The notes beneath the pieces are model-generated. The model was not told the origin of the DNA. It did no database searches and saw only the letters and a list, made by a program, of their open reading frames with translations. The translations under genes were made by a program, and so were the position numbers. A stretch of 64,000 bases of DNA from Lachnospiraceae bacterium HCP1S3_C2 (lineage in GTDB: Bacteria > Bacillota > Clostridia > Lachnospirales > Lachnospiraceae). Shown in pieces: positions 1,974 through 55,580 of the stretch (within the stretch, counting starts at the first letter, position 1; each line of letters starts with the position of its first letter). The DNA lies in NCBI GenBank assembly GCA_052066835.1, contig JBQHRJ010000002.1; one strand, written 5' to 3'.

Positions 1974-2046
1974 AGCGCGAGACGGGACTCGAACCCGCGG
2001 CCCCGACCTTGGCAAGGTCGTGCTCCACCAACTGAGCCACTCGCGC
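1974..2046 (-). tRNA. tRNA-Gly (anticodon GCC)
   Basis: Reverse complement reads gcgcgag-tggctcagttggtggagcac-gaccttGCCaaggtc-...-ggttcgagtcccgt-ctcgcgc. It has a 7-bp acceptor stem, a TpsiC-like GGTTCGAGTCC, and anticodon loop cuuGCCaa. CCA is not encoded. Confidence 0.85.
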
Positions 2047-2918: not shown

Positions 2919-3047
2919 ATAAGATTCAGGTGTAAAAAGTGTGCTACGCACCAGCCAAGCACAATATGTGATATTGCAAGCTAGCTTGCAAATACACATA
3001 CTTGTGTTGGCTAGTCCCCGTAGGGGCTTTTTACACCTGAATCTTAT
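2919..3047. repeat. Palindromic/structured intergenic repeat, copy A (21-bp terminal inverted repeat, conserved about 95-nt core, internal GC hairpin + T-tract)
   Basis: ataagattcaggtgtaaaaag ... ctttttacacctgaatcttat inverted repeats flank the core gcaccagcc..aatatgtgatattgcaagc(t)agcttgcaaatacacata..ggctagtccccgtaggggcttttt. Related copies are at 35611-35733 and 55520-55569. Confidence 0.6.
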
Positions 3048-3082
3048 TAATCGTAATATCTATATAGAAAGGCAGACCTTAA

Positions 3083-3865
3083 ATGAACATATATGCAACC
3101 AGCCATTTAGACAACACATTACAATCTGATATCACAAAACTTGCAAGACTGTGCGCCAAATACGACGGTACAAGCGAACATATTTTTCTTGAGGAAGACA
3201 TAAACGCTCTTCCTGAGCTTCCGGCATATTATATAGCCACAACTAAACCTGATAATACGCTTATCGGATATATGGGTGTTTTTACGCCTGATGAATACAG
3301 TTGCGAAGTCTACTGTTATGTTCACCCTGAATATAGAAACCAACATATATTTACCAGTTTATCAGCTCTCCTTAAGAAGAATCTTAAAAATTATGGCACA
3401 GATACCATATACTTTGTGGCTGCTCCTGATTCTATCACGGCCACAAAGGTTGCACAACACTTACATGCCCGCCACGAACCATCAGACTATATACTCATAA
3501 ATACTCTTGGAAACCGAATTGTTTCCACCGGCACAAACGATACATTATATATAGAAGAACTTCCGCACGAAGAAGAATCAGAAGAAACCGTATCAATCAT
3601 TAATGATGGCATACGCATAGGCGAATGTGGTCTTTTTTTCCTCGGTTCCTGTGCAACAATACATGGTTTTGAAATATTTGAAAAATACAGAAATAAAGGA
3701 TTTGGAAAACTTTCCCTCAATCTGATACTCGATTTTCTGGCCGATAAAAATATAACAGATGTTATACTTCATGTTACAGAAAGCAATAAAGCCGCCTGTC
3801 ATCTGTATATGACAAACGGCTTCCATATAAAGGAACAGACTGATTATTATTCAATTAATATCTAG
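3083..3865 (+). CDS. GNAT-family N-acetyltransferase (two GNAT-like halves)
   Basis: 260 aa. The C-terminal half has a typical acetyl-CoA binding motif region (RNKGFGKLSLNLILDFL...ILHVTESNKAACHLYMTNGF). The N-terminal half has a second degenerate GNAT-like segment. Confidence 0.6.
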   Translation: MNIYATSHLDNTLQSDITKLARLCAKYDGTSEHIFLEEDINALPELPAYYIATTKPDNTLIGYMGVFTPDEYSCEVYCYVHPEYRNQHIFTSLSALLKKNLKNYGTDTIYFVAAPDSITATKVAQHLHARHEPSDYILINTLGNRIVSTGTNDTLYIEELPHEEESEETVSIINDGIRIGECGLFFLGSCATIHGFEIFEKYRNKGFGKLSLNLILDFLADKNITDVILHVTESNKAACHLYMTNGFHIKEQTDYYSINI

Positions 3866-4588: not shown

Positions 4589-4733
4589 ATCATTCTCCAT
4601 TCTGCACCCACAAATCTGCGCCCGGCTCATCGTTTAAACGGGAGTCTGCTAAGCAAACTCCCGTTCAGACTATATGATATTATAGCACAGTTATGTGAAC
4701 ATAATGTGAAATCATTCCTGATAATATTTTATT

Positions 4734-6218
4734 CTACAGATTTGTGTAACCCATAAGACTCTCATCTACCTCGCGTGCGGCATCACGTCCTTCACGAATT
4801 CCCCACACTACGAGCGACTGTCCTCTGTGCATATCTCCTGCTACAAACACATTCTTTACATTTGTGGCATGGCATCCGGCATCTGTCTTAACATTTGTAC
4901 GTTCATTTACCTCTACACCGAAAGCATCTGTTACATATTTCTGGCTTCCAAGGAATCCTGCTGCAATAAGTACAAGCTCTGCCTCTACTTCATACTCGCT
5001 TCCTTCTATTTCTACCATGTTCATTCTTCCGGTCTTCGGATCTTTCTTTCCCTCAAGCTTTACAAGCTGTACCTTACAGAGATTTCCTTTTTTATCTGCT
5101 ATAAATTTCTTAACTGTTGTACAGTATACTCTAGGGTCATGTCCAAATACTGCTATAGCCTCTTCCTGACCATAATCAGTTTTGCACACTCTCGGCCACT
5201 CCGGCCATGGATTATTTTCTGCTCTTTCATCCGGTGCCTTAGGCATCATTTCAAGCTGAAGTACTGACTTCGCACCATGTCTTATAGATGTTCCTACGCA
5301 GTCATTACCTGTATCACCACCACCTATAACTATTACATTCTTTCCTTTTGCAGAAATGTATGTTCCATCTTTAAGTCCTGTATCAAGCAGGCTCTTTGTT
5401 GTGGATTTAAGAAAATCAACGGCAAAATATATACCGTTTGCTTCACGTCCCGGTGCCTTTATATCTCTCGGATTAGAAGCACCGCAACACAATACAACCC
5501 TGTCATATTTTTTAAGAATTTCAGATGCCTTTATATCCTTTCCTATATCAGCATTTGTAACAAATTCCACGCCCTCTTCTTTCATAATCTCTACTTTTCT
5601 GTCGATGACATGTTTTTCGAGTTTCATATTAGGGATTCCATACATTAACAGTCCGCCTATCCTGTCAGAACGCTCATATACTGTTACACTATGGCCTCTC
5701 TGATTGAGCTGGTCTGCTGTTGCAAGTCCCGAAGGACCCGAACCTATGACAGCCACCTTCTTACCTGTTCTCACCTTTGGAATCCTTGGCTTTGCATAAC
5801 CTTCTTTATACGCATTTTCAATAATTGCATACTCATTCTGTTTAGATGCCACTGCATTTCCGTTAAGTCCGCATGTACATGCATTCTCACACAATGCCGG
5901 ACATACTCTTCCGGTAAATTCCGGAAAATTGTTTGTCTTATGCAGTCTTGCGTATGCCTGCTCCCAGTTTCCGTTATATAACAAATCATTCCACTCCGGA
6001 ACCAGATTGTTAAGCGGACATCCTGACACCATTCCGCCGAGTACCATTCCTGCCTGGCAGAAAGGTACTCCGCAATCCATACATCTTGCACCCTGAAGCT
6101 GCTGCTTCTCTTTAGGAAGAGGAGTATGGAACTCGTTAAAATTTTTTATTCTCTGTTTCGGAGGTACAGCCACGCTGTTCTCACGTTCATAATCTAAAAA
6201 TCCTGTCGGTTTACCCAT
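4734..6218 (-). CDS. gltD: Glutamate synthase (NADPH) small subunit
   Basis: 494 aa. N-terminal Fe-S cysteine cluster (CMDCGVPFC..C..C), FAD/NAD Rossmann motifs (VAVIGSGPSG, VIGGGDTGNDC). Directly downstream of gltB. Confidence 0.85.
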   Translation of the reverse strand: MGKPTGFLDYERENSVAVPPKQRIKNFNEFHTPLPKEKQQLQGARCMDCGVPFCQAGMVLGGMVSGCPLNNLVPEWNDLLYNGNWEQAYARLHKTNNFPEFTGRVCPALCENACTCGLNGNAVASKQNEYAIIENAYKEGYAKPRIPKVRTGKKVAVIGSGPSGLATADQLNQRGHSVTVYERSDRIGGLLMYGIPNMKLEKHVIDRKVEIMKEEGVEFVTNADIGKDIKASEILKKYDRVVLCCGASNPRDIKAPGREANGIYFAVDFLKSTTKSLLDTGLKDGTYISAKGKNVIVIGGGDTGNDCVGTSIRHGAKSVLQLEMMPKAPDERAENNPWPEWPRVCKTDYGQEEAIAVFGHDPRVYCTTVKKFIADKKGNLCKVQLVKLEGKKDPKTGRMNMVEIEGSEYEVEAELVLIAAGFLGSQKYVTDAFGVEVNERTNVKTDAGCHATNVKNVFVAGDMHRGQSLVVWGIREGRDAAREVDESLMGYTNL

Positions 6219-6232
6219 TCCATTGTCCTCCT

Positions 6233-9200
6233 TTAATTTTTCTCACCGGTCATTGCATAGAAGGCTTCTATCTGTGCCTGTTCACTGCTAAGACCCTTTT
6301 CTTCCATCTGTACGATTGCCATCATCATCTTGTTATAATCATGTGGTATTACCTTCTTGAATTTTGGCAGATACTCACCAAAGTTCTCAAGAATCTCTTT
6401 ACCTTTTGCAGAATTTGTGTATGCAACATGATCTGTAATAATCTGTTTAAGTTCCATAACATCATATTTAGATGTTATTTCTGTAGAAGAAACCATTGAT
6501 TTATTAAGTTTCATATATAAATCTCTGTTTTCATCAAGCACGTAAGCTATACCGCCGCTCATACCTGCTGCAAAGTTCTTACCTGTAGGTCCGAGTATAA
6601 CGGCACGTCCTCCTGTCATATATTCGCATCCATGATCACCAACACCTTCTACTACGGCTGTTGCGCCTGAATTACGAACACAGAAACGTTCGCCTGCCAC
6701 ACCGTTTATATATGCCTTACCACTTGTGGCACCATACAACGCTACGTTACCGATAATTATATTTTCTTCTGCTTTATATGAAATTCCCTTTGGAGGATAA
6801 ACTATAAGTTTACCACCTGAAAGTCCTTTACCAAAGTAATCATTACTGTCACCTACAAGTTCAAGCGTAAGTCCCTTTGGAATGAATGCGCCAAAACTCT
6901 GTCCGCCTGCTCCCGTACATTTTACGGTAAATGTATCTTCCTCAAGGCTTTCACCATATTTTGCAGTTATCTCTGAACCAAATATAGTACCAAATGATCT
7001 GTCAGTATTTGTAACGTCCACCTCAATACTTCTCTTCTGTTTCTTCTCAAGTGCCGGTCCGAGTTTCTTCAAAAGCACACGTTCATCAAGTGTTTTCTCA
7101 AGCTGGAAATCATATACATTTTTATTGTTATATTCAATCTTCTCAGCATTTGCAAAATCAGAATTAAGTATCTTAGAAAGATCTACTTCACTGGCCTTAC
7201 CTGATGTAACACCCTTCTTTGCAACAAGAAGATCTGTTCTTCCTACAAGCTCATCAACTGTTCTGATGCCGAGCTTAGCCATATATTCTCTTAATTCCTG
7301 TGCTATAAACTTCATAAAGTTTACAACATATTCAGGTTTACCTTTAAATTTCTTTCTGAGTTCAGGATTCTGTGTAGCAACACCAACCGGACATGTGTCA
7401 AGGTTACATACTCTCATCATTACACATCCCATAGTTACAAGCGGAGCTGTTGCAAATCCGTACTCTTCAGCACCAAGCATTGCAGCTATTGCCACATCTC
7501 TACCACTCATAAGTTTTCCGTCTGTCTCAATGATAACCTTATTTCTAAGTCCGTTCATTATAAGTGTCTGCTGTACTTCTGCAAGTCCGAGCTCCCAAGG
7601 AAGTCCTGCATTGTGAATAGAGTTTCTAGGTGCTGCACCTGTACCTCCGTCATATCCTGATACAAGTATTACCTGTGCACCTGCTTTTGCAACACCGGCT
7701 GCAACAGTACCAACGCCTGCCTCTGAAACAAGTTTTACTGATATTCTGGCTTTTCTGTTTGCATTCTTACAATCATATATAAGCTGTGCTAAATCCTCGA
7801 TAGAATATATATCATGGTGTGGCGGTGGAGATATAAGACTTACACCCGGTGTTGAATGTCTGGTCTTTGCTATCCAAGGATAAACCTTTTTGCCCGGAAG
7901 ATGTCCGCCCTCACCCGGCTTAGCACCCTGTGCCATCTTAATCTGTATCTCCTGTGCACTCATCAGATATTTTGATGTAACACCAAAACGTCCTGATGCT
8001 ACCTGCTTAATAGCCGAACAACGGTTAAGTCCGTCTTTTGAAGGCTCAAGTCTCTCATCACTCTCTCCACCTTCACCGCTGTTTGATTTACCATGGAGCA
8101 TGTTCATTGCAATCGCCATAGTTTCATGTGCTTCCTGTGAAATAGAACCATATGACATGGCACCTGTCTTAAATCTCTTAACAATCGAATCAACACTTTC
8201 AACTTCATCAATCGGAATAGGTTTGTCAGCATATTTAAAATCAATAAGTCCTCTTAAATGAACTGCATCCATCTCCTCATCAATGAGATGTGTATACTGT
8301 TTAAATATATCATAGTTTCCTGTTCTGGTTGCAACCTGAAGCATATGAATAGTCTGAGGATTGTAAAGATGCTCCTCTTTTCCACTTCTGAACTTATGAC
8401 TTCCCTTACTCTCAAGAGTATCATCAACACCAAGTCCCAGTGAATCAAATGCCTTAGAATGAAGTTCATTAACTCTGTCTTCTATATCTTTAAGTGTAAT
8501 TCCCTCTATTCTGCTTACTGTATTTGTAAAATATTTATCTATTACTTCTGAGCTTATACCTATTGCCTCAAATATCTGAGAACCCTGATATGACTGTATT
8601 GTAGAAATACCCATCTTAGATGCAATCTTTACAATGCCGCTTATAATTGCCTTGTTGTAATCTTCTACTGCTGCATAATAATCTTTATCAAGCATTCTGT
8701 TGTCTATAAGTTCTTTTATAGTTTCCTGTGCAAGATATGGATTTATGGCACATGCTCCATATCCGAGCAATGTTGCAAAATGATGTACTTCTCTAGGTTC
8801 ACCACTCTCAAGCACAAGTGCAAGACTTGTTCTCTTCTTAGTCACTACAAGGTGCTGGTGAAGTGCTGACACTGCCAGAAGTGAAGGAATGGCAACATGG
8901 TTCTCATCAACACCACGGTCAGACAATATAAGTATATTTGCTCCATCCTTATGTGCTCTGTCTGCCTCAAGGAACAAATGATCAATAGCTTTCTGCAATG
9001 ATGTATTCTTATAATATGTGGTCGGAATAACAACAACCTTGAATCCCGGTACATTCATATTTTTAATTTTCAATATATCCGTATTTGTAAGTATCGGATT
9101 ATGAACCTTAAGAACCTGACAGTTTTCAGGACATTCCTCAAGAATATTTCCGTCCTTACCTATATATACTGTTGTAGATGTAACTATTTCCTCTCGGATT

Positions 9201-10792
9201 GCATCTATAGGCGGATTCGTAACCTGTGCAAAAAGCTGTTTGAAATAATCAAATAATGGTTCGGCACAGTTTGACAATACAGAAACCGGCTTGTCTGAAC
9301 CCATGGCTGCAATAGGCTCTGAACCATTCTTTGCCATAGGAAGAATAGATGTCATTACATCCTCATATGTGTAACCAAATGATTTCTGAATCTTCTTTCT
9401 CTCATCTTCTGAATACTCTTCAACTCTCTTATTAGGAATCTTTAAATCTTTAAGTTCTACAAGATTGCTGTCAAGCCATTCACCATATGGTCTCTTAGCT
9501 GCATATTTCTCTTTAAGTTCATCATCATCAATAAGTCTTCCCTGAACAGTATCAACTAAAAGCATCTTTCCCGGTCTCAAACGTTCTTTTGAAACAATCT
9601 TTGCAGGATCAACGTTAAGAACACCGACTTCTGATGAAAGAACAAGATTGTCATCATCTGTTATATAATAACGGGATGGTCTGAGTCCATTTCTGTCAAG
9701 AACTGCTCCCATGATATCTCCATCTGTAAACAGGATAGACGCAGGTCCGTCCCACGGCTCCATCATAGTAGCATAGTACTGATAAAAGTCTCTCTTTGCC
9801 TGACTGATAGTAGGATTATTGTCCCAAGGTTCAGGTATGGTAATCATTACTGCCAAAGGAAGTTCCATTCCACTCATAACTAGAAATTCAAGTGTATTAT
9901 CAAGCATTGCCGAATCAGAACCTTCAGAATTAACTACAGGCATAACTTTGTGCATCTGGCCTTTAAGATACTCAGATTCCATCGTCTCCTCACGGGCAAG
10001 CATATTATCAGCATTTCCACGAATCGTATTAATCTCTCCGTTATGCACTATCATTCTGTAAGGATGTGCTCTCATCCAGCTTGGCTGTGTATTTGTACTG
10101 AATCTTGAGTGAACAAGTGCTATTGCTGACTCATAATCTGCACTCTGCAAATCGTCAAAGAACAATCTGAGCTGTCCTACAAGGAACATACCTTTATATA
10201 CGATAGTTCTGCTTGAAAGTGAAAGAACATAAGTTGTATCATTACTCTGTTCAAACACACGTCTTACAACGTAAAGTTTTCTGTCAAAATCAAGACCTTT
10301 ATTAACATTTTCCGGTCTCTTTACAAATGCCTGCATAATACATGGCATACATTCAACAGCTTTGCTTCCAAGTACCTTAGGATTTGTCGGAACCTCTCTC
10401 CATCCGAGGAATTCCATTCCCTCTTTTTCCACGATTATCTCAAACATCTTTTTAGATTCGTTACGTTTGAATTCATCCTGTGGAAAGAAGAACATTCCTA
10501 CTCCGTAATCTCTCTCTGAGCCAATTAAAAAGCCGAGCGGTTTGACTGCTTTCTGGAAAAATTTATGAGAAATCTGTAACATGATTCCTACTCCATCACC
10601 AGTCTTACCCTCGGCGTCTTTGCCTGCTCTATGTTCCAAGTTTTCAACAATCTTAAGTGCATCCTCTACTGTCGCATGGGATTTCTTTCCCTTAATGTTT
10701 ACTACAGCACCGATACCACAGTTATCGTGTTCAAATGAAGGATTGTATAATCCTTTATTCTTTGCACTTTTACAAAATTCTCTCTGATTCAT
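6233..10792 (-). CDS. gltB: Glutamate synthase large subunit
   Basis: 1519 aa. N-terminal Cys amidotransferase (FEHDNCGIG), central FMN/3Fe-4S domain, C-terminal GXGXG domain. Canonical GOGAT architecture. Confidence 0.9.
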   Translation of the reverse strand: MNQREFCKSAKNKGLYNPSFEHDNCGIGAVVNIKGKKSHATVEDALKIVENLEHRAGKDAEGKTGDGVGIMLQISHKFFQKAVKPLGFLIGSERDYGVGMFFFPQDEFKRNESKKMFEIIVEKEGMEFLGWREVPTNPKVLGSKAVECMPCIMQAFVKRPENVNKGLDFDRKLYVVRRVFEQSNDTTYVLSLSSRTIVYKGMFLVGQLRLFFDDLQSADYESAIALVHSRFSTNTQPSWMRAHPYRMIVHNGEINTIRGNADNMLAREETMESEYLKGQMHKVMPVVNSEGSDSAMLDNTLEFLVMSGMELPLAVMITIPEPWDNNPTISQAKRDFYQYYATMMEPWDGPASILFTDGDIMGAVLDRNGLRPSRYYITDDDNLVLSSEVGVLNVDPAKIVSKERLRPGKMLLVDTVQGRLIDDDELKEKYAAKRPYGEWLDSNLVELKDLKIPNKRVEEYSEDERKKIQKSFGYTYEDVMTSILPMAKNGSEPIAAMGSDKPVSVLSNCAEPLFDYFKQLFAQVTNPPIDAIREEIVTSTTVYIGKDGNILEECPENCQVLKVHNPILTNTDILKIKNMNVPGFKVVVIPTTYYKNTSLQKAIDHLFLEADRAHKDGANILILSDRGVDENHVAIPSLLAVSALHQHLVVTKKRTSLALVLESGEPREVHHFATLLGYGACAINPYLAQETIKELIDNRMLDKDYYAAVEDYNKAIISGIVKIASKMGISTIQSYQGSQIFEAIGISSEVIDKYFTNTVSRIEGITLKDIEDRVNELHSKAFDSLGLGVDDTLESKGSHKFRSGKEEHLYNPQTIHMLQVATRTGNYDIFKQYTHLIDEEMDAVHLRGLIDFKYADKPIPIDEVESVDSIVKRFKTGAMSYGSISQEAHETMAIAMNMLHGKSNSGEGGESDERLEPSKDGLNRCSAIKQVASGRFGVTSKYLMSAQEIQIKMAQGAKPGEGGHLPGKKVYPWIAKTRHSTPGVSLISPPPHHDIYSIEDLAQLIYDCKNANRKARISVKLVSEAGVGTVAAGVAKAGAQVILVSGYDGGTGAAPRNSIHNAGLPWELGLAEVQQTLIMNGLRNKVIIETDGKLMSGRDVAIAAMLGAEEYGFATAPLVTMGCVMMRVCNLDTCPVGVATQNPELRKKFKGKPEYVVNFMKFIAQELREYMAKLGIRTVDELVGRTDLLVAKKGVTSGKASEVDLSKILNSDFANAEKIEYNNKNVYDFQLEKTLDERVLLKKLGPALEKKQKRSIEVDVTNTDRSFGTIFGSEITAKYGESLEEDTFTVKCTGAGGQSFGAFIPKGLTLELVGDSNDYFGKGLSGGKLIVYPPKGISYKAEENIIIGNVALYGATSGKAYINGVAGERFCVRNSGATAVVEGVGDHGCEYMTGGRAVILGPTGKNFAAGMSGGIAYVLDENRDLYMKLNKSMVSSTEITSKYDVMELKQIITDHVAYTNSAKGKEILENFGEYLPKFKKVIPHDYNKMMMAIVQMEEKGLSSEQAQIEAFYAMTGEKN

Positions 10793-35610: not shown

Positions 35611-35733
35611 ATATTAGTGCGTCAAAATGGTGCTTTGCACCAGCCGGACATAATATGTGATATTGCAAGCAAGCTTGCAAATACACATATTTATGCCGGC
35701 TAATCCCCAAAGGGGATTTTTATGCACTAATAT
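35611..35733. repeat. Palindromic/structured intergenic repeat, copy B
   Basis: About 90% identical core to copy A (gcaccagcc..aatatgtgatattgcaagcaagcttgcaaatacacatatttatgccggctaatccccaaaggggattttta). The outer stem has a different sequence but still base-pairs (atattagtgcgtcaaaa / tttttatgcactaatat). Confidence 0.6.
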
Positions 35734-55234: not shown

Positions 55235-55444
55235 ATGAATATGAAGAAATTTAAACAGATACTGGCCATTATCGGTATAATATTACTTGTAGGATTGTAT
55301 GTGGCTGCCTTTGTGCTTTCATTTATGCACAGTCCGTTAGCTTCAAGATGGTACTCTGCCGCCATATACAGTACTATCATTATTCCCATATTTTTGTGGG
55401 TGGTTATTATGATTACCAAATATCTGAAAAATCTTAATAAATAA
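55235..55444 (+). CDS. Small 2-TM membrane protein
   Basis: 69 aa, 9 bp downstream of but. Two hydrophobic helices. Confidence 0.4.
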   Translation: MNMKKFKQILAIIGIILLVGLYVAAFVLSFMHSPLASRWYSAAIYSTIIIPIFLWVVIMITKYLKNLNK

Positions 55445-55519
55445 ACAGCTTAACAGCAAAAAAATATCCATTCTGGAACAGGTTATCAGCCTCTCCAAAA
55501 TGGATATTTTCATTTAATC

Positions 55520-55569
55520 AGATTCAGGTGTTGGCTAGTCCCCGTAGGGGCTTTTGACACCTGAATCTT
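55520..55569. repeat. Palindromic repeat copy C (short form) acting as a convergent-gene terminator
   Basis: aGATTCAGGTGttggctagtccccgtaggggcttttgaCACCTGAATCt. It shares the inverted-repeat ends and GC hairpin of copy A but lacks the central core. Confidence 0.6.
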
Positions 55570-55580
55570 AATTATCTAAA

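Follow-up and report, generated by a model that had tools for sequence, protein, structure and literature searches.

What are the three structured repeats that lie between genes in this stretch of DNA: RNA genes, regulatory leaders or pieces of a mobile element? An earlier note on the 64,000-nt stretch analysed here (the window) had described three related intergenic copies, A, B and C, and had offered cis-acting attenuators, small RNAs or a MITE-like element carrying a terminator as possible identities. Based on the copies in the window, their alleles in other strains and their relatives in other genomes and metagenomes, we conclude that the three repeats are very probably copies of a non-autonomous DNA transposon of about 121 bp, a MITE. 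A MITE family is an ordinary kind of thing; this one is apparently new and undescribed.

Copies, anatomy and distribution of the element

Reading of the sites together with pattern searches bore out a three-copy family with all members on the plus strand. The 38-nt core AATATGTGATATTGCAAGCnAGCTTGCAAATACACATA occurs in the window solely at 2963-3000 and 35652-35689, and the pattern GGCTARTCCCCnnnGGGG solely at 3009, 35698 and 55533, with no occurrence of either in shuffled sequence. Copies A and B fold on either strand with z-scores of -9 to -12 relative to dinucleotide shuffles. A covariance model built from 29 family members and run unfiltered over the whole window assigned 147.8 bits to A, 142.3 bits to B and 26.7 bits to C (E 5e-4), with no fourth copy at E < 0.1.

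A full copy carries 17-nt terminal inverted repeats at both ends, with the consensus GATTCAGGTGTCAAAAG, and the termini of young copies read GATTCAGGTGTC...GACACCTGAATC. Inside one end lies a small sub-terminal GC hairpin, H1 (GGTGC-nnn-GCACC), and inside the other end a second one, H3 (CCCC-nnn-GGGG followed by C/A and TTTT(T)). The centre is occupied by a 60-nt hairpin, H2, whose apex ATTGCAAGCnAGCTTGCAAAT has the form TTGCAAGC-n-AGCTTGCAA and is near-constant in the copies recovered. The whole element is near-palindromic, the difference between H1 and H3 being its only real asymmetry. H1 and H3 tend to have loops that are each other's reverse complement (TAC/GTA, TTT/AAA, TGC/GCA; 84% paired), and in relatives from soil Bacillota H3 itself reads GCACC-nnn-GGTGC, suggesting that the element was once a symmetrical palindrome.

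Copy A is a full-length element of 121 bp, delimited by the covariance model at 2923-3043 on the plus strand and running in the H1-to-H3 direction. Its left terminal inverted repeat GATTCAGGTGTAAAAAG (2923-2939, plus strand) is the exact reverse complement of the right one, CTTTTTACACCTGAATC (3027-3043, plus strand). Between them, on the same strand, lie H1 at 2940-2952 (TGTGC TAC GCACC) and H2 at 2953-3012, with a basal stem that covaries between copies and the apex ATTGCAAGCTAGCTTGCAAAT at 2973-2993. H3, at 3016-3032, consists of CCCC GTA GGGG followed by C and TTTTT and is terminator-like, below the thresholds of the terminator scan described later. The first base of H1 is mutated in this strain: position 2940 is T in the window and G in other strains, so that TGTGC replaces GGTGC and the hairpin is weakened. 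On the left, copy A is flanked by the 7-mer ATAATAA (2916-2922), which is identical at 5/7 positions to its partner TTATTAA on the right (3044-3050) and can be regarded as a decayed target-site duplication.

Copy B, likewise a full-length element of 121 bp, was placed by the same model at 35612-35732 on the plus strand. Its modules are H1 at 35629-35641, H2 at 35642-35701 with the apex at 35662-35682, H3 at 35704-35716 and the T-run at 35717-35721, all on the plus strand. The terminal repeats of B, TATTAGTGCGTCAAAAT and ATTTTTATGCACTAATA, have diverged with their complementarity retained. The outer flanks of A and B, which had been described as unrelated in sequence and still base-paired, do pair, and they prove to be diverged versions of one 17-nt terminal inverted repeat. 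Complementarity also holds, with a one-base bulge, for the blocks that differ between the two copies (AAGCAC/GTGTT in A, GGACAT/ATGCC in B), as had been proposed; the loop of the GC hairpin, given there as four nucleotides, has 3 nt (GTA in A, AAA in B).

Copy C (55521-55567, plus strand) was rightly said to keep just the terminal repeats and the GC hairpin. It is a 47-bp internal-deletion derivative, corresponding to an A-like copy minus the segment between two GTGT direct repeats, whereby H1 and H2 are gone and both terminal repeats and H3 are retained. Its left flanking duplication TTAATCA (55514-55520) matches the right partner TTAATTA (55568-55574) at 6/7 positions. All three copies are small (A and B 121 bp, C 47 bp) and non-coding, as is characteristic of MITEs, the sole ORF overlapping the full copies being a mechanical 62-aa GTG frame at 2941-3129. 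The terminal inverted repeats that mark a MITE are perfectly complementary over 17 nt in A, and pairing of the outer helix reaches 94% over the 29 copies.

Copies beyond the window, which the earlier note had proposed to count, are numerous. A metagenome scan with the apex pattern returned 40 loci, 23 of them from the single assembly ERZ1034998, which contains the species of the window, as it carries both locus A (L057) and locus B (L068). An end-motif scan combined with the covariance model added at least four further full copies without the exact apex in loci of this assembly, giving at least 27 full or near-full copies, the many dispersed copies expected of a MITE. Relatives with the same architecture were recovered by one apex-pattern scan of species-representative genomes, which also returned unrelated or chance matches; they come from an uncultured Jutongia MAG (two loci), Lachnoclostridium sp. 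UBA3262 and the soil MAG Bacillota bacterium CTSoil_066 (two loci). Truncated copies were found among the retrieved loci, and L070 carries at 1272-1318 a mini derivative composed of just two terminal repeats around GCCC (GGATTCAAGTGAAAAAAGCCCTTTTTTTCACTTGAATCC). Together with copy C, this is a second case of collapse to a simple hairpin resembling an ordinary terminator. Local clustering is seen in the 13-kb locus L071, where four full copies (1824-1957, 4654-4784, 9082-9212 and 9619-9750) lie within 8 kb, two of them about 400 bp apart.

Many short-read (Logan) contigs break inside the element, often near the centre of the palindrome, as is expected of a repeated palindrome; those ending inside copies A and B are L012, L020-L022, L032-L038 and L084. 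The exact boundaries given here define a repeat that can be named and that fragments short-read assemblies of a human-gut butyrate producer and its relatives. As the repeat adjoins promoters and gene ends, it bears on annotation, on strain typing and on how expression differs from strain to strain.

The apex pattern also matched sequences of other kinds. Anaerocolumna and Lachnospiraceae MAGs contain the palindrome GGAATTGCAAGCnAGCTTGCAAATTCC within another repeat (L006 5061-5244, L001 ~3560-3740, L059 ~6080-6260), which has an 87-nt unit in 2.1 tandem copies, each starting with the promoter-like TGATATAAT. In a third palindrome context, the apex palindrome is followed by CTCACTTTGCTTTCGCG-AAATAAAA, at ~7026-7046 of L007 (Anaerocolumna sedimenticola) and ~1501-1521 of L051 (a metagenome contig). 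Matches devoid of the element architecture occurred in seven loci that are near-identical to each other (L040, L058, L060, L063, L069, L074, L076) and in L052, where the reverse strand around the pattern resembles, by eye, the tyrosine-recombinase motif H-T-F-A-S-W-L-A. These architecture-free matches are probably chance matches in coding sequence.

Flanking duplications and an empty site

We compared the 7 bases outside the alignment-fixed termini of 29 copies, using the left and right flanks of different copies as a control. Perfect 7/7 duplications flank five of the 29 copies (CTATTCA, CTATTAA, TATATAA, CTAATAA and CAGATAG), compared to 0.25% in the cross-copy controls, and a match of at least 6/7 was found for 8/29 copies, compared to 2.7% in the controls. 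For 13 of the 29 copies, the match was 3/7 or less, which is the chance level. The intact duplications occur in copies with near-consensus ends. The target-site duplications by which a MITE is recognised are thus present and 7 bp long, which points to staggered cuts made by a transposase.

The site of copy C is empty in three strains (L023, L027, L028), which have the same genes on either side and a single TTAATTA, so that the look at target sites in strains lacking a copy, suggested in the earlier note, gave a positive result. The empty site reads TTCAT-TTAATTA-AATTAAC and the window reads TTAATCA-element-TTAATTA, plus an adjacent 4-nt indel. Copy C therefore shows the presence/absence polymorphism of a MITE, and copies A and B are present in every retrieved strain. 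Of the identities proposed for the repeats, the MITE-like one is upheld by the 7-bp duplications, the empty site of C, dozens of dispersed copies and the truncated or deleted derivatives.

The element inserts into intergenic DNA, with 7 bp of the target becoming duplicated; according to the MITE reading, it would be mobilised in trans by a transposase making 7-bp staggered cuts. An autonomous partner was sought as a widely spaced pair of the same ends in 559 kb of retrieved loci, by blastn in plasmids and phages and by three scans of viral contigs, with no match in any of them. The family defines a 7-bp-duplicating element. The outermost positions of the terminal repeats vary freely yet stay paired, which would not normally be expected if a DDE transposase recognised the ends by their sequence. 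A full-text search of the literature yielded no description of the apex sequence or of MITEs in Lachnospiraceae. The clade goes unmentioned in the main text of a MITE survey of 183,232 genomes, the data of which may differ (PMC11602168).

Gene context, paired changes and an inverted allele

An ORF-based analysis of 32 copies placed 12 between divergent genes, 4 between convergent genes and 14 between genes in tandem. Among these 14, the element, read from H1 to H3, runs with the genes in 12 cases and against them in 2 (binomial p ~0.013), and a co-directional gene follows the element in 25/31 contexts. Relative to the local majority gene strand, 20 copies are co-oriented and 12 anti-oriented. 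An insertion bias due to replication strand was rejected as the cause, considering that this ratio is only 20:12 and that A, B and C all lie on the plus strand of a window with 85% minus-strand genes. The 12:2 co-orientation suggests instead that transcription filters which insertions survive. Such filtering is plausible, and the bias is the one result not predicted by a purely neutral selfish element.

The terminator attributed to the element in the earlier note is present as a hairpin followed by a T-run; it does not qualify as a terminator in a scan requiring a GC-rich stem of 5 or more pairs and, after it, 5 or more T within 8 bases, which found no terminator-like site around A or B, H3 having 4 G-C pairs and 4-5 T. 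On the opposite strand, H1 is likewise a small GC hairpin followed by 4-5 T, and both are terminator-like at most. Each terminal repeat also contains an outward TTGACA. In copy A, the GNAT gene at 3083 is preceded by an outward -35-like TTTACA (3030-3035) and, after a spacer of 18 nt, by TAATAT; this promoter-like match scores 9/12, which is not above shuffles. Hybrid promoters formed from the outward TTGACA were not retained as a general feature: A offers one weakly, and in young copies no suitably spaced -10 was seen by eye. With a GC hairpin followed by T's and an outward TTGACA at each end, the copies would probably stop transcription weakly in either direction and occasionally supply a promoter.

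The surroundings of copies A and C include further features. Just past the end of the nitroreductase-like gene that flanks A lies a tRNA gene (1974-2046, minus strand, 65.3 bits). Near C, an uncalled hydrophobic ORF of 69 aa (MNMKKFKQILAIIG...) extends over 55235-55444, downstream of the butyryl-CoA:acetate CoA-transferase gene, and has its own hairpin and T-run at ~55463-55510 (ATATCCATT...AATGGATATTTT), just after which C is inserted. Since this separate hairpin is also present in strains without C, copy C is not needed as the terminator of the ORF.

The compensatory stem changes described in the earlier note are real and general in the family. In the alignment of 29 copies, 95.3% of the cells are paired and 24/49 pairs have changed on both sides (102 cells). 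The covariation check with more copies, which the earlier note had called for, is highly significant, with 0/500 shuffles reaching any of the five observed measures, and sliding the partners by 1-3 columns reduces pairing to 31-48%. The positions that vary and are compensated lie in the outer terminal repeat and at the base of H2; H1, H3 and the inner terminal repeat hardly vary. Conservation of the apex is only partly tested by these data, because the apex pattern itself served to retrieve or select 25 of the 29 copies and so fixes the apex in them; in the 4 copies found independently of it, the apex is exact in two and differs by 1-3 bases in two.

Comparison of young and old copies indicates how the paired changes arose. 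The arms of young copies are nearly unchanged. In old copies, those with decayed duplications, each arm has diverged from the consensus at 4.5-4.9 of 12 terminal positions; Watson-Crick pairing nevertheless persists at 9.5/12, and each copy has about 3.2 compensated pairs of its own. Independent drift at this divergence is expected to leave about 5/12 paired, by a rough estimate. The private variants, along with pairing above the drift estimate, indicate that compensation occurred in place, copy by copy. No strand asymmetry was found when G-U was compared with A-C mismatches (27 G-U on the plus strand and 18 on the minus strand, p=0.23), and the folding energy of the 29 copies is equal on the two strands (p=0.9). 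When 12 unflipped alleles of locus B were compared, 4 sites proved variable in the 121 nt of the element, and the 249 nt of flanks contained 1 SNP and 1 indel; the resident copy B shows no sign of purifying selection.

A DNA palindrome undergoing arm-to-arm conversion accounts for the covariation better than an RNA specific to one strand does. Arm-to-arm gene conversion and replication template switching are both established for inverted repeats, and after insertion the two arms of a copy may co-evolve most simply by one of these routes. Concerted evolution of the arms would suffice to generate the compensatory changes, with no RNA function required. The family is therefore a cautionary case of how highly significant covariation can arise in a DNA palindrome with arms evolving together; since palindrome arms can evolve in concert, covariation alone does not prove a functional RNA.

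Strains with identical flanks at locus B carry the interior, bounded by TTAGTGCGTCAAAAT and the inverted partner of this sequence, in either orientation. Three alleles from independent samples (L013 2624-2754, L022 1-60 and L068 1708-1838, orthologous to window 35612-35732) are flipped, as opposed to the window and 12 other alleles. The reverse complement of the interior in the window matches the flipped interior at 99/100 positions, and the left repeat of the flipped allele equals the left repeat of the window rather than the complement of its right repeat. As the left repeat is unchanged, inversion between the repeats fits better than excision and re-insertion. All three flipped alleles have the right-repeat variant ATTTTGACACA in common, and a 3-nt insertion in the left flank is found in the flipped L013 and L068 as well as in the unflipped L083 (L022 starts inside the element). 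The shared variant and the flank insertion, including that of L083, make the flip look like a single historical event in a sublineage. The same arm-to-arm recombination, if resolved as a crossover, would produce the inverted interior.

Alternative readings and known systems

The strong covariation and a predicted stability far above that of shuffles are what would be expected of a structured RNA family, comprising small RNAs or 5'-leader attenuators with a four-helix fold maintained by selection on the RNA and a GC hairpin with U-tract ending the transcript. The 12:2 co-direction, the co-directional gene that comes next in 25/31 contexts and the location of A and B upstream of plus-strand genes would also suit such a family. 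Nevertheless, the duplications and the empty site show that the copies arrived by insertion, and both the mismatches and the folding energy are indifferent to the strand. There is no conserved upstream promoter, as the sequences flanking the copies are unrelated, and H3 falls short as a terminator. Moreover, the interior at locus B exists in either orientation with nothing else changed, and among strains the element is no more conserved than its flanks. At the Rfam gathering threshold, the tRNA was the sole match in the window and five related loci gave none; in a permissive search, the best sub-threshold match reached 18 bits against a threshold of 100, confirming the earlier impression that no known Rfam family is involved. 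We thus consider an RNA family improbable: the attenuator and small-RNA identities are not supported, and the lack of strand asymmetry, the private compensations and the polymorphism at B argue against taking the paired changes as a signature of selection for an RNA hairpin. Two related candidates were set aside. A Cas9 tracrRNA-like nexus (GGCTAGTCC) turned out to be no more than the H2 stem, at its 3' base, of a repeat that is dispersed and flanked by target-site duplications. A retron msr/msd or a leader attenuator was dropped because the copies have different flanks and unrelated genes downstream (GNAT, DUF1836).

The two orientations at locus B, with identical flanks and an unchanged left repeat, could also be explained by a family of invertons, in which a site-specific recombinase flips the interior of about 90 bp and alters the expression of a neighbour. 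Lineage-independent, repeated switching was not observed among the strains compared, given that the flipped alleles share one right-repeat variant and the flank insertion extends to L083, and every strain examined has copy A in one and the same orientation. The Pfam lists for the genes up to 3 kb from B contain PspA, Band_7, UvrD, DUF1836, Trp_repressor, PHP, CSD and HSP33 and no recombinase; a distant global invertase is conceivable. Because the element is almost symmetrical, flipping changes little, and the duplications and the empty site would be left unexplained. A phase-variable inverton was therefore downgraded, the flip tracking a sublineage, and is in our view very improbable. The constant stems of the sub-terminal hairpins at both ends, surrounded by stems that tolerate change, are reminiscent of REP/BIME-like or IS200/IS605-type palindromes, moved as single strands by an HUH (Y1) transposase that would recognise H1 and H3. 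REP/RAYT and IS200/IS605-type systems are not known to make target-site duplications or to carry terminal inverted repeats; the present family has both, with duplications of 7 bp and terminal repeats of 17 nt, rendering this explanation extremely unlikely.

A further reading retains a mobile element and assigns importance to its fold rather than its sequence, describing a mobile four-way-junction palindrome with an outer stem free to change as long as it stays paired. The constant blocks (the inner repeat, the stems of H1 and H3 and the apex) between covarying stems could reflect selection on a folded nucleic acid. Either the transposase would recognise the hairpin or cruciform, or the host would keep copies as directional transcription insulators, an option hinted at by the 12:2 co-orientation together with the alternation of constant blocks and covarying stems. 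If true, this would represent a structure-dependent class of target-duplicating bacterial transposon; we regard it as unlikely.

As a MITE, the family can be compared with small dispersed repeats of other bacteria. ERIC is, like the element described here, an imperfect intergenic palindrome of similar size (~127 bp), with a copy number that varies between species and with internal-deletion and insertion variants (PMC10969869). It differs in host clade and sequence, and the young copies with intact duplications found here indicate recent mobility. SPRITE, RUP and BOX of Streptococcus pneumoniae are likewise small, non-coding, dispersed repeats of a Gram-positive genome, and SPRITE carries a hairpin resembling a Rho-independent terminator (PMC10969869). 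No similarity to them was detected, as nothing matched in Rfam, plasmids or phages, and the present element differs in having sub-threshold terminator-like hairpins at both ends, clear terminal repeats and 7-bp duplications.

The Correia repeat-enclosed elements (CREE) of Neisseria have 26-bp ends and a TA target duplication. The ends here are GATTCAGGTGTCAAAAG and the duplication is 7 bp, which places the family outside Correia; there is no sequence similarity, the host belongs to a different phylum, the interior is built of four helices and includes two sub-terminal GC hairpins, and no IHF site was identified. The resemblance lies in the overall design: Correia is a palindromic MITE of ~100-150 bp, its terminal inverted repeats are long, and its numerous intergenic copies often lie just upstream of genes; it also has outward promoter-like hexamers in its ends and transcripts that form hairpins (PMC10969869). 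In-situ inversion has been reported for Correia as well, and both inversion and promoter or terminator effects have been described for MITEs such as Correia and SPRITE (PMC10969869). Locus B thus adds an example from a Gram-positive gut bacterium to the in-situ MITE inversion previously described for Correia.
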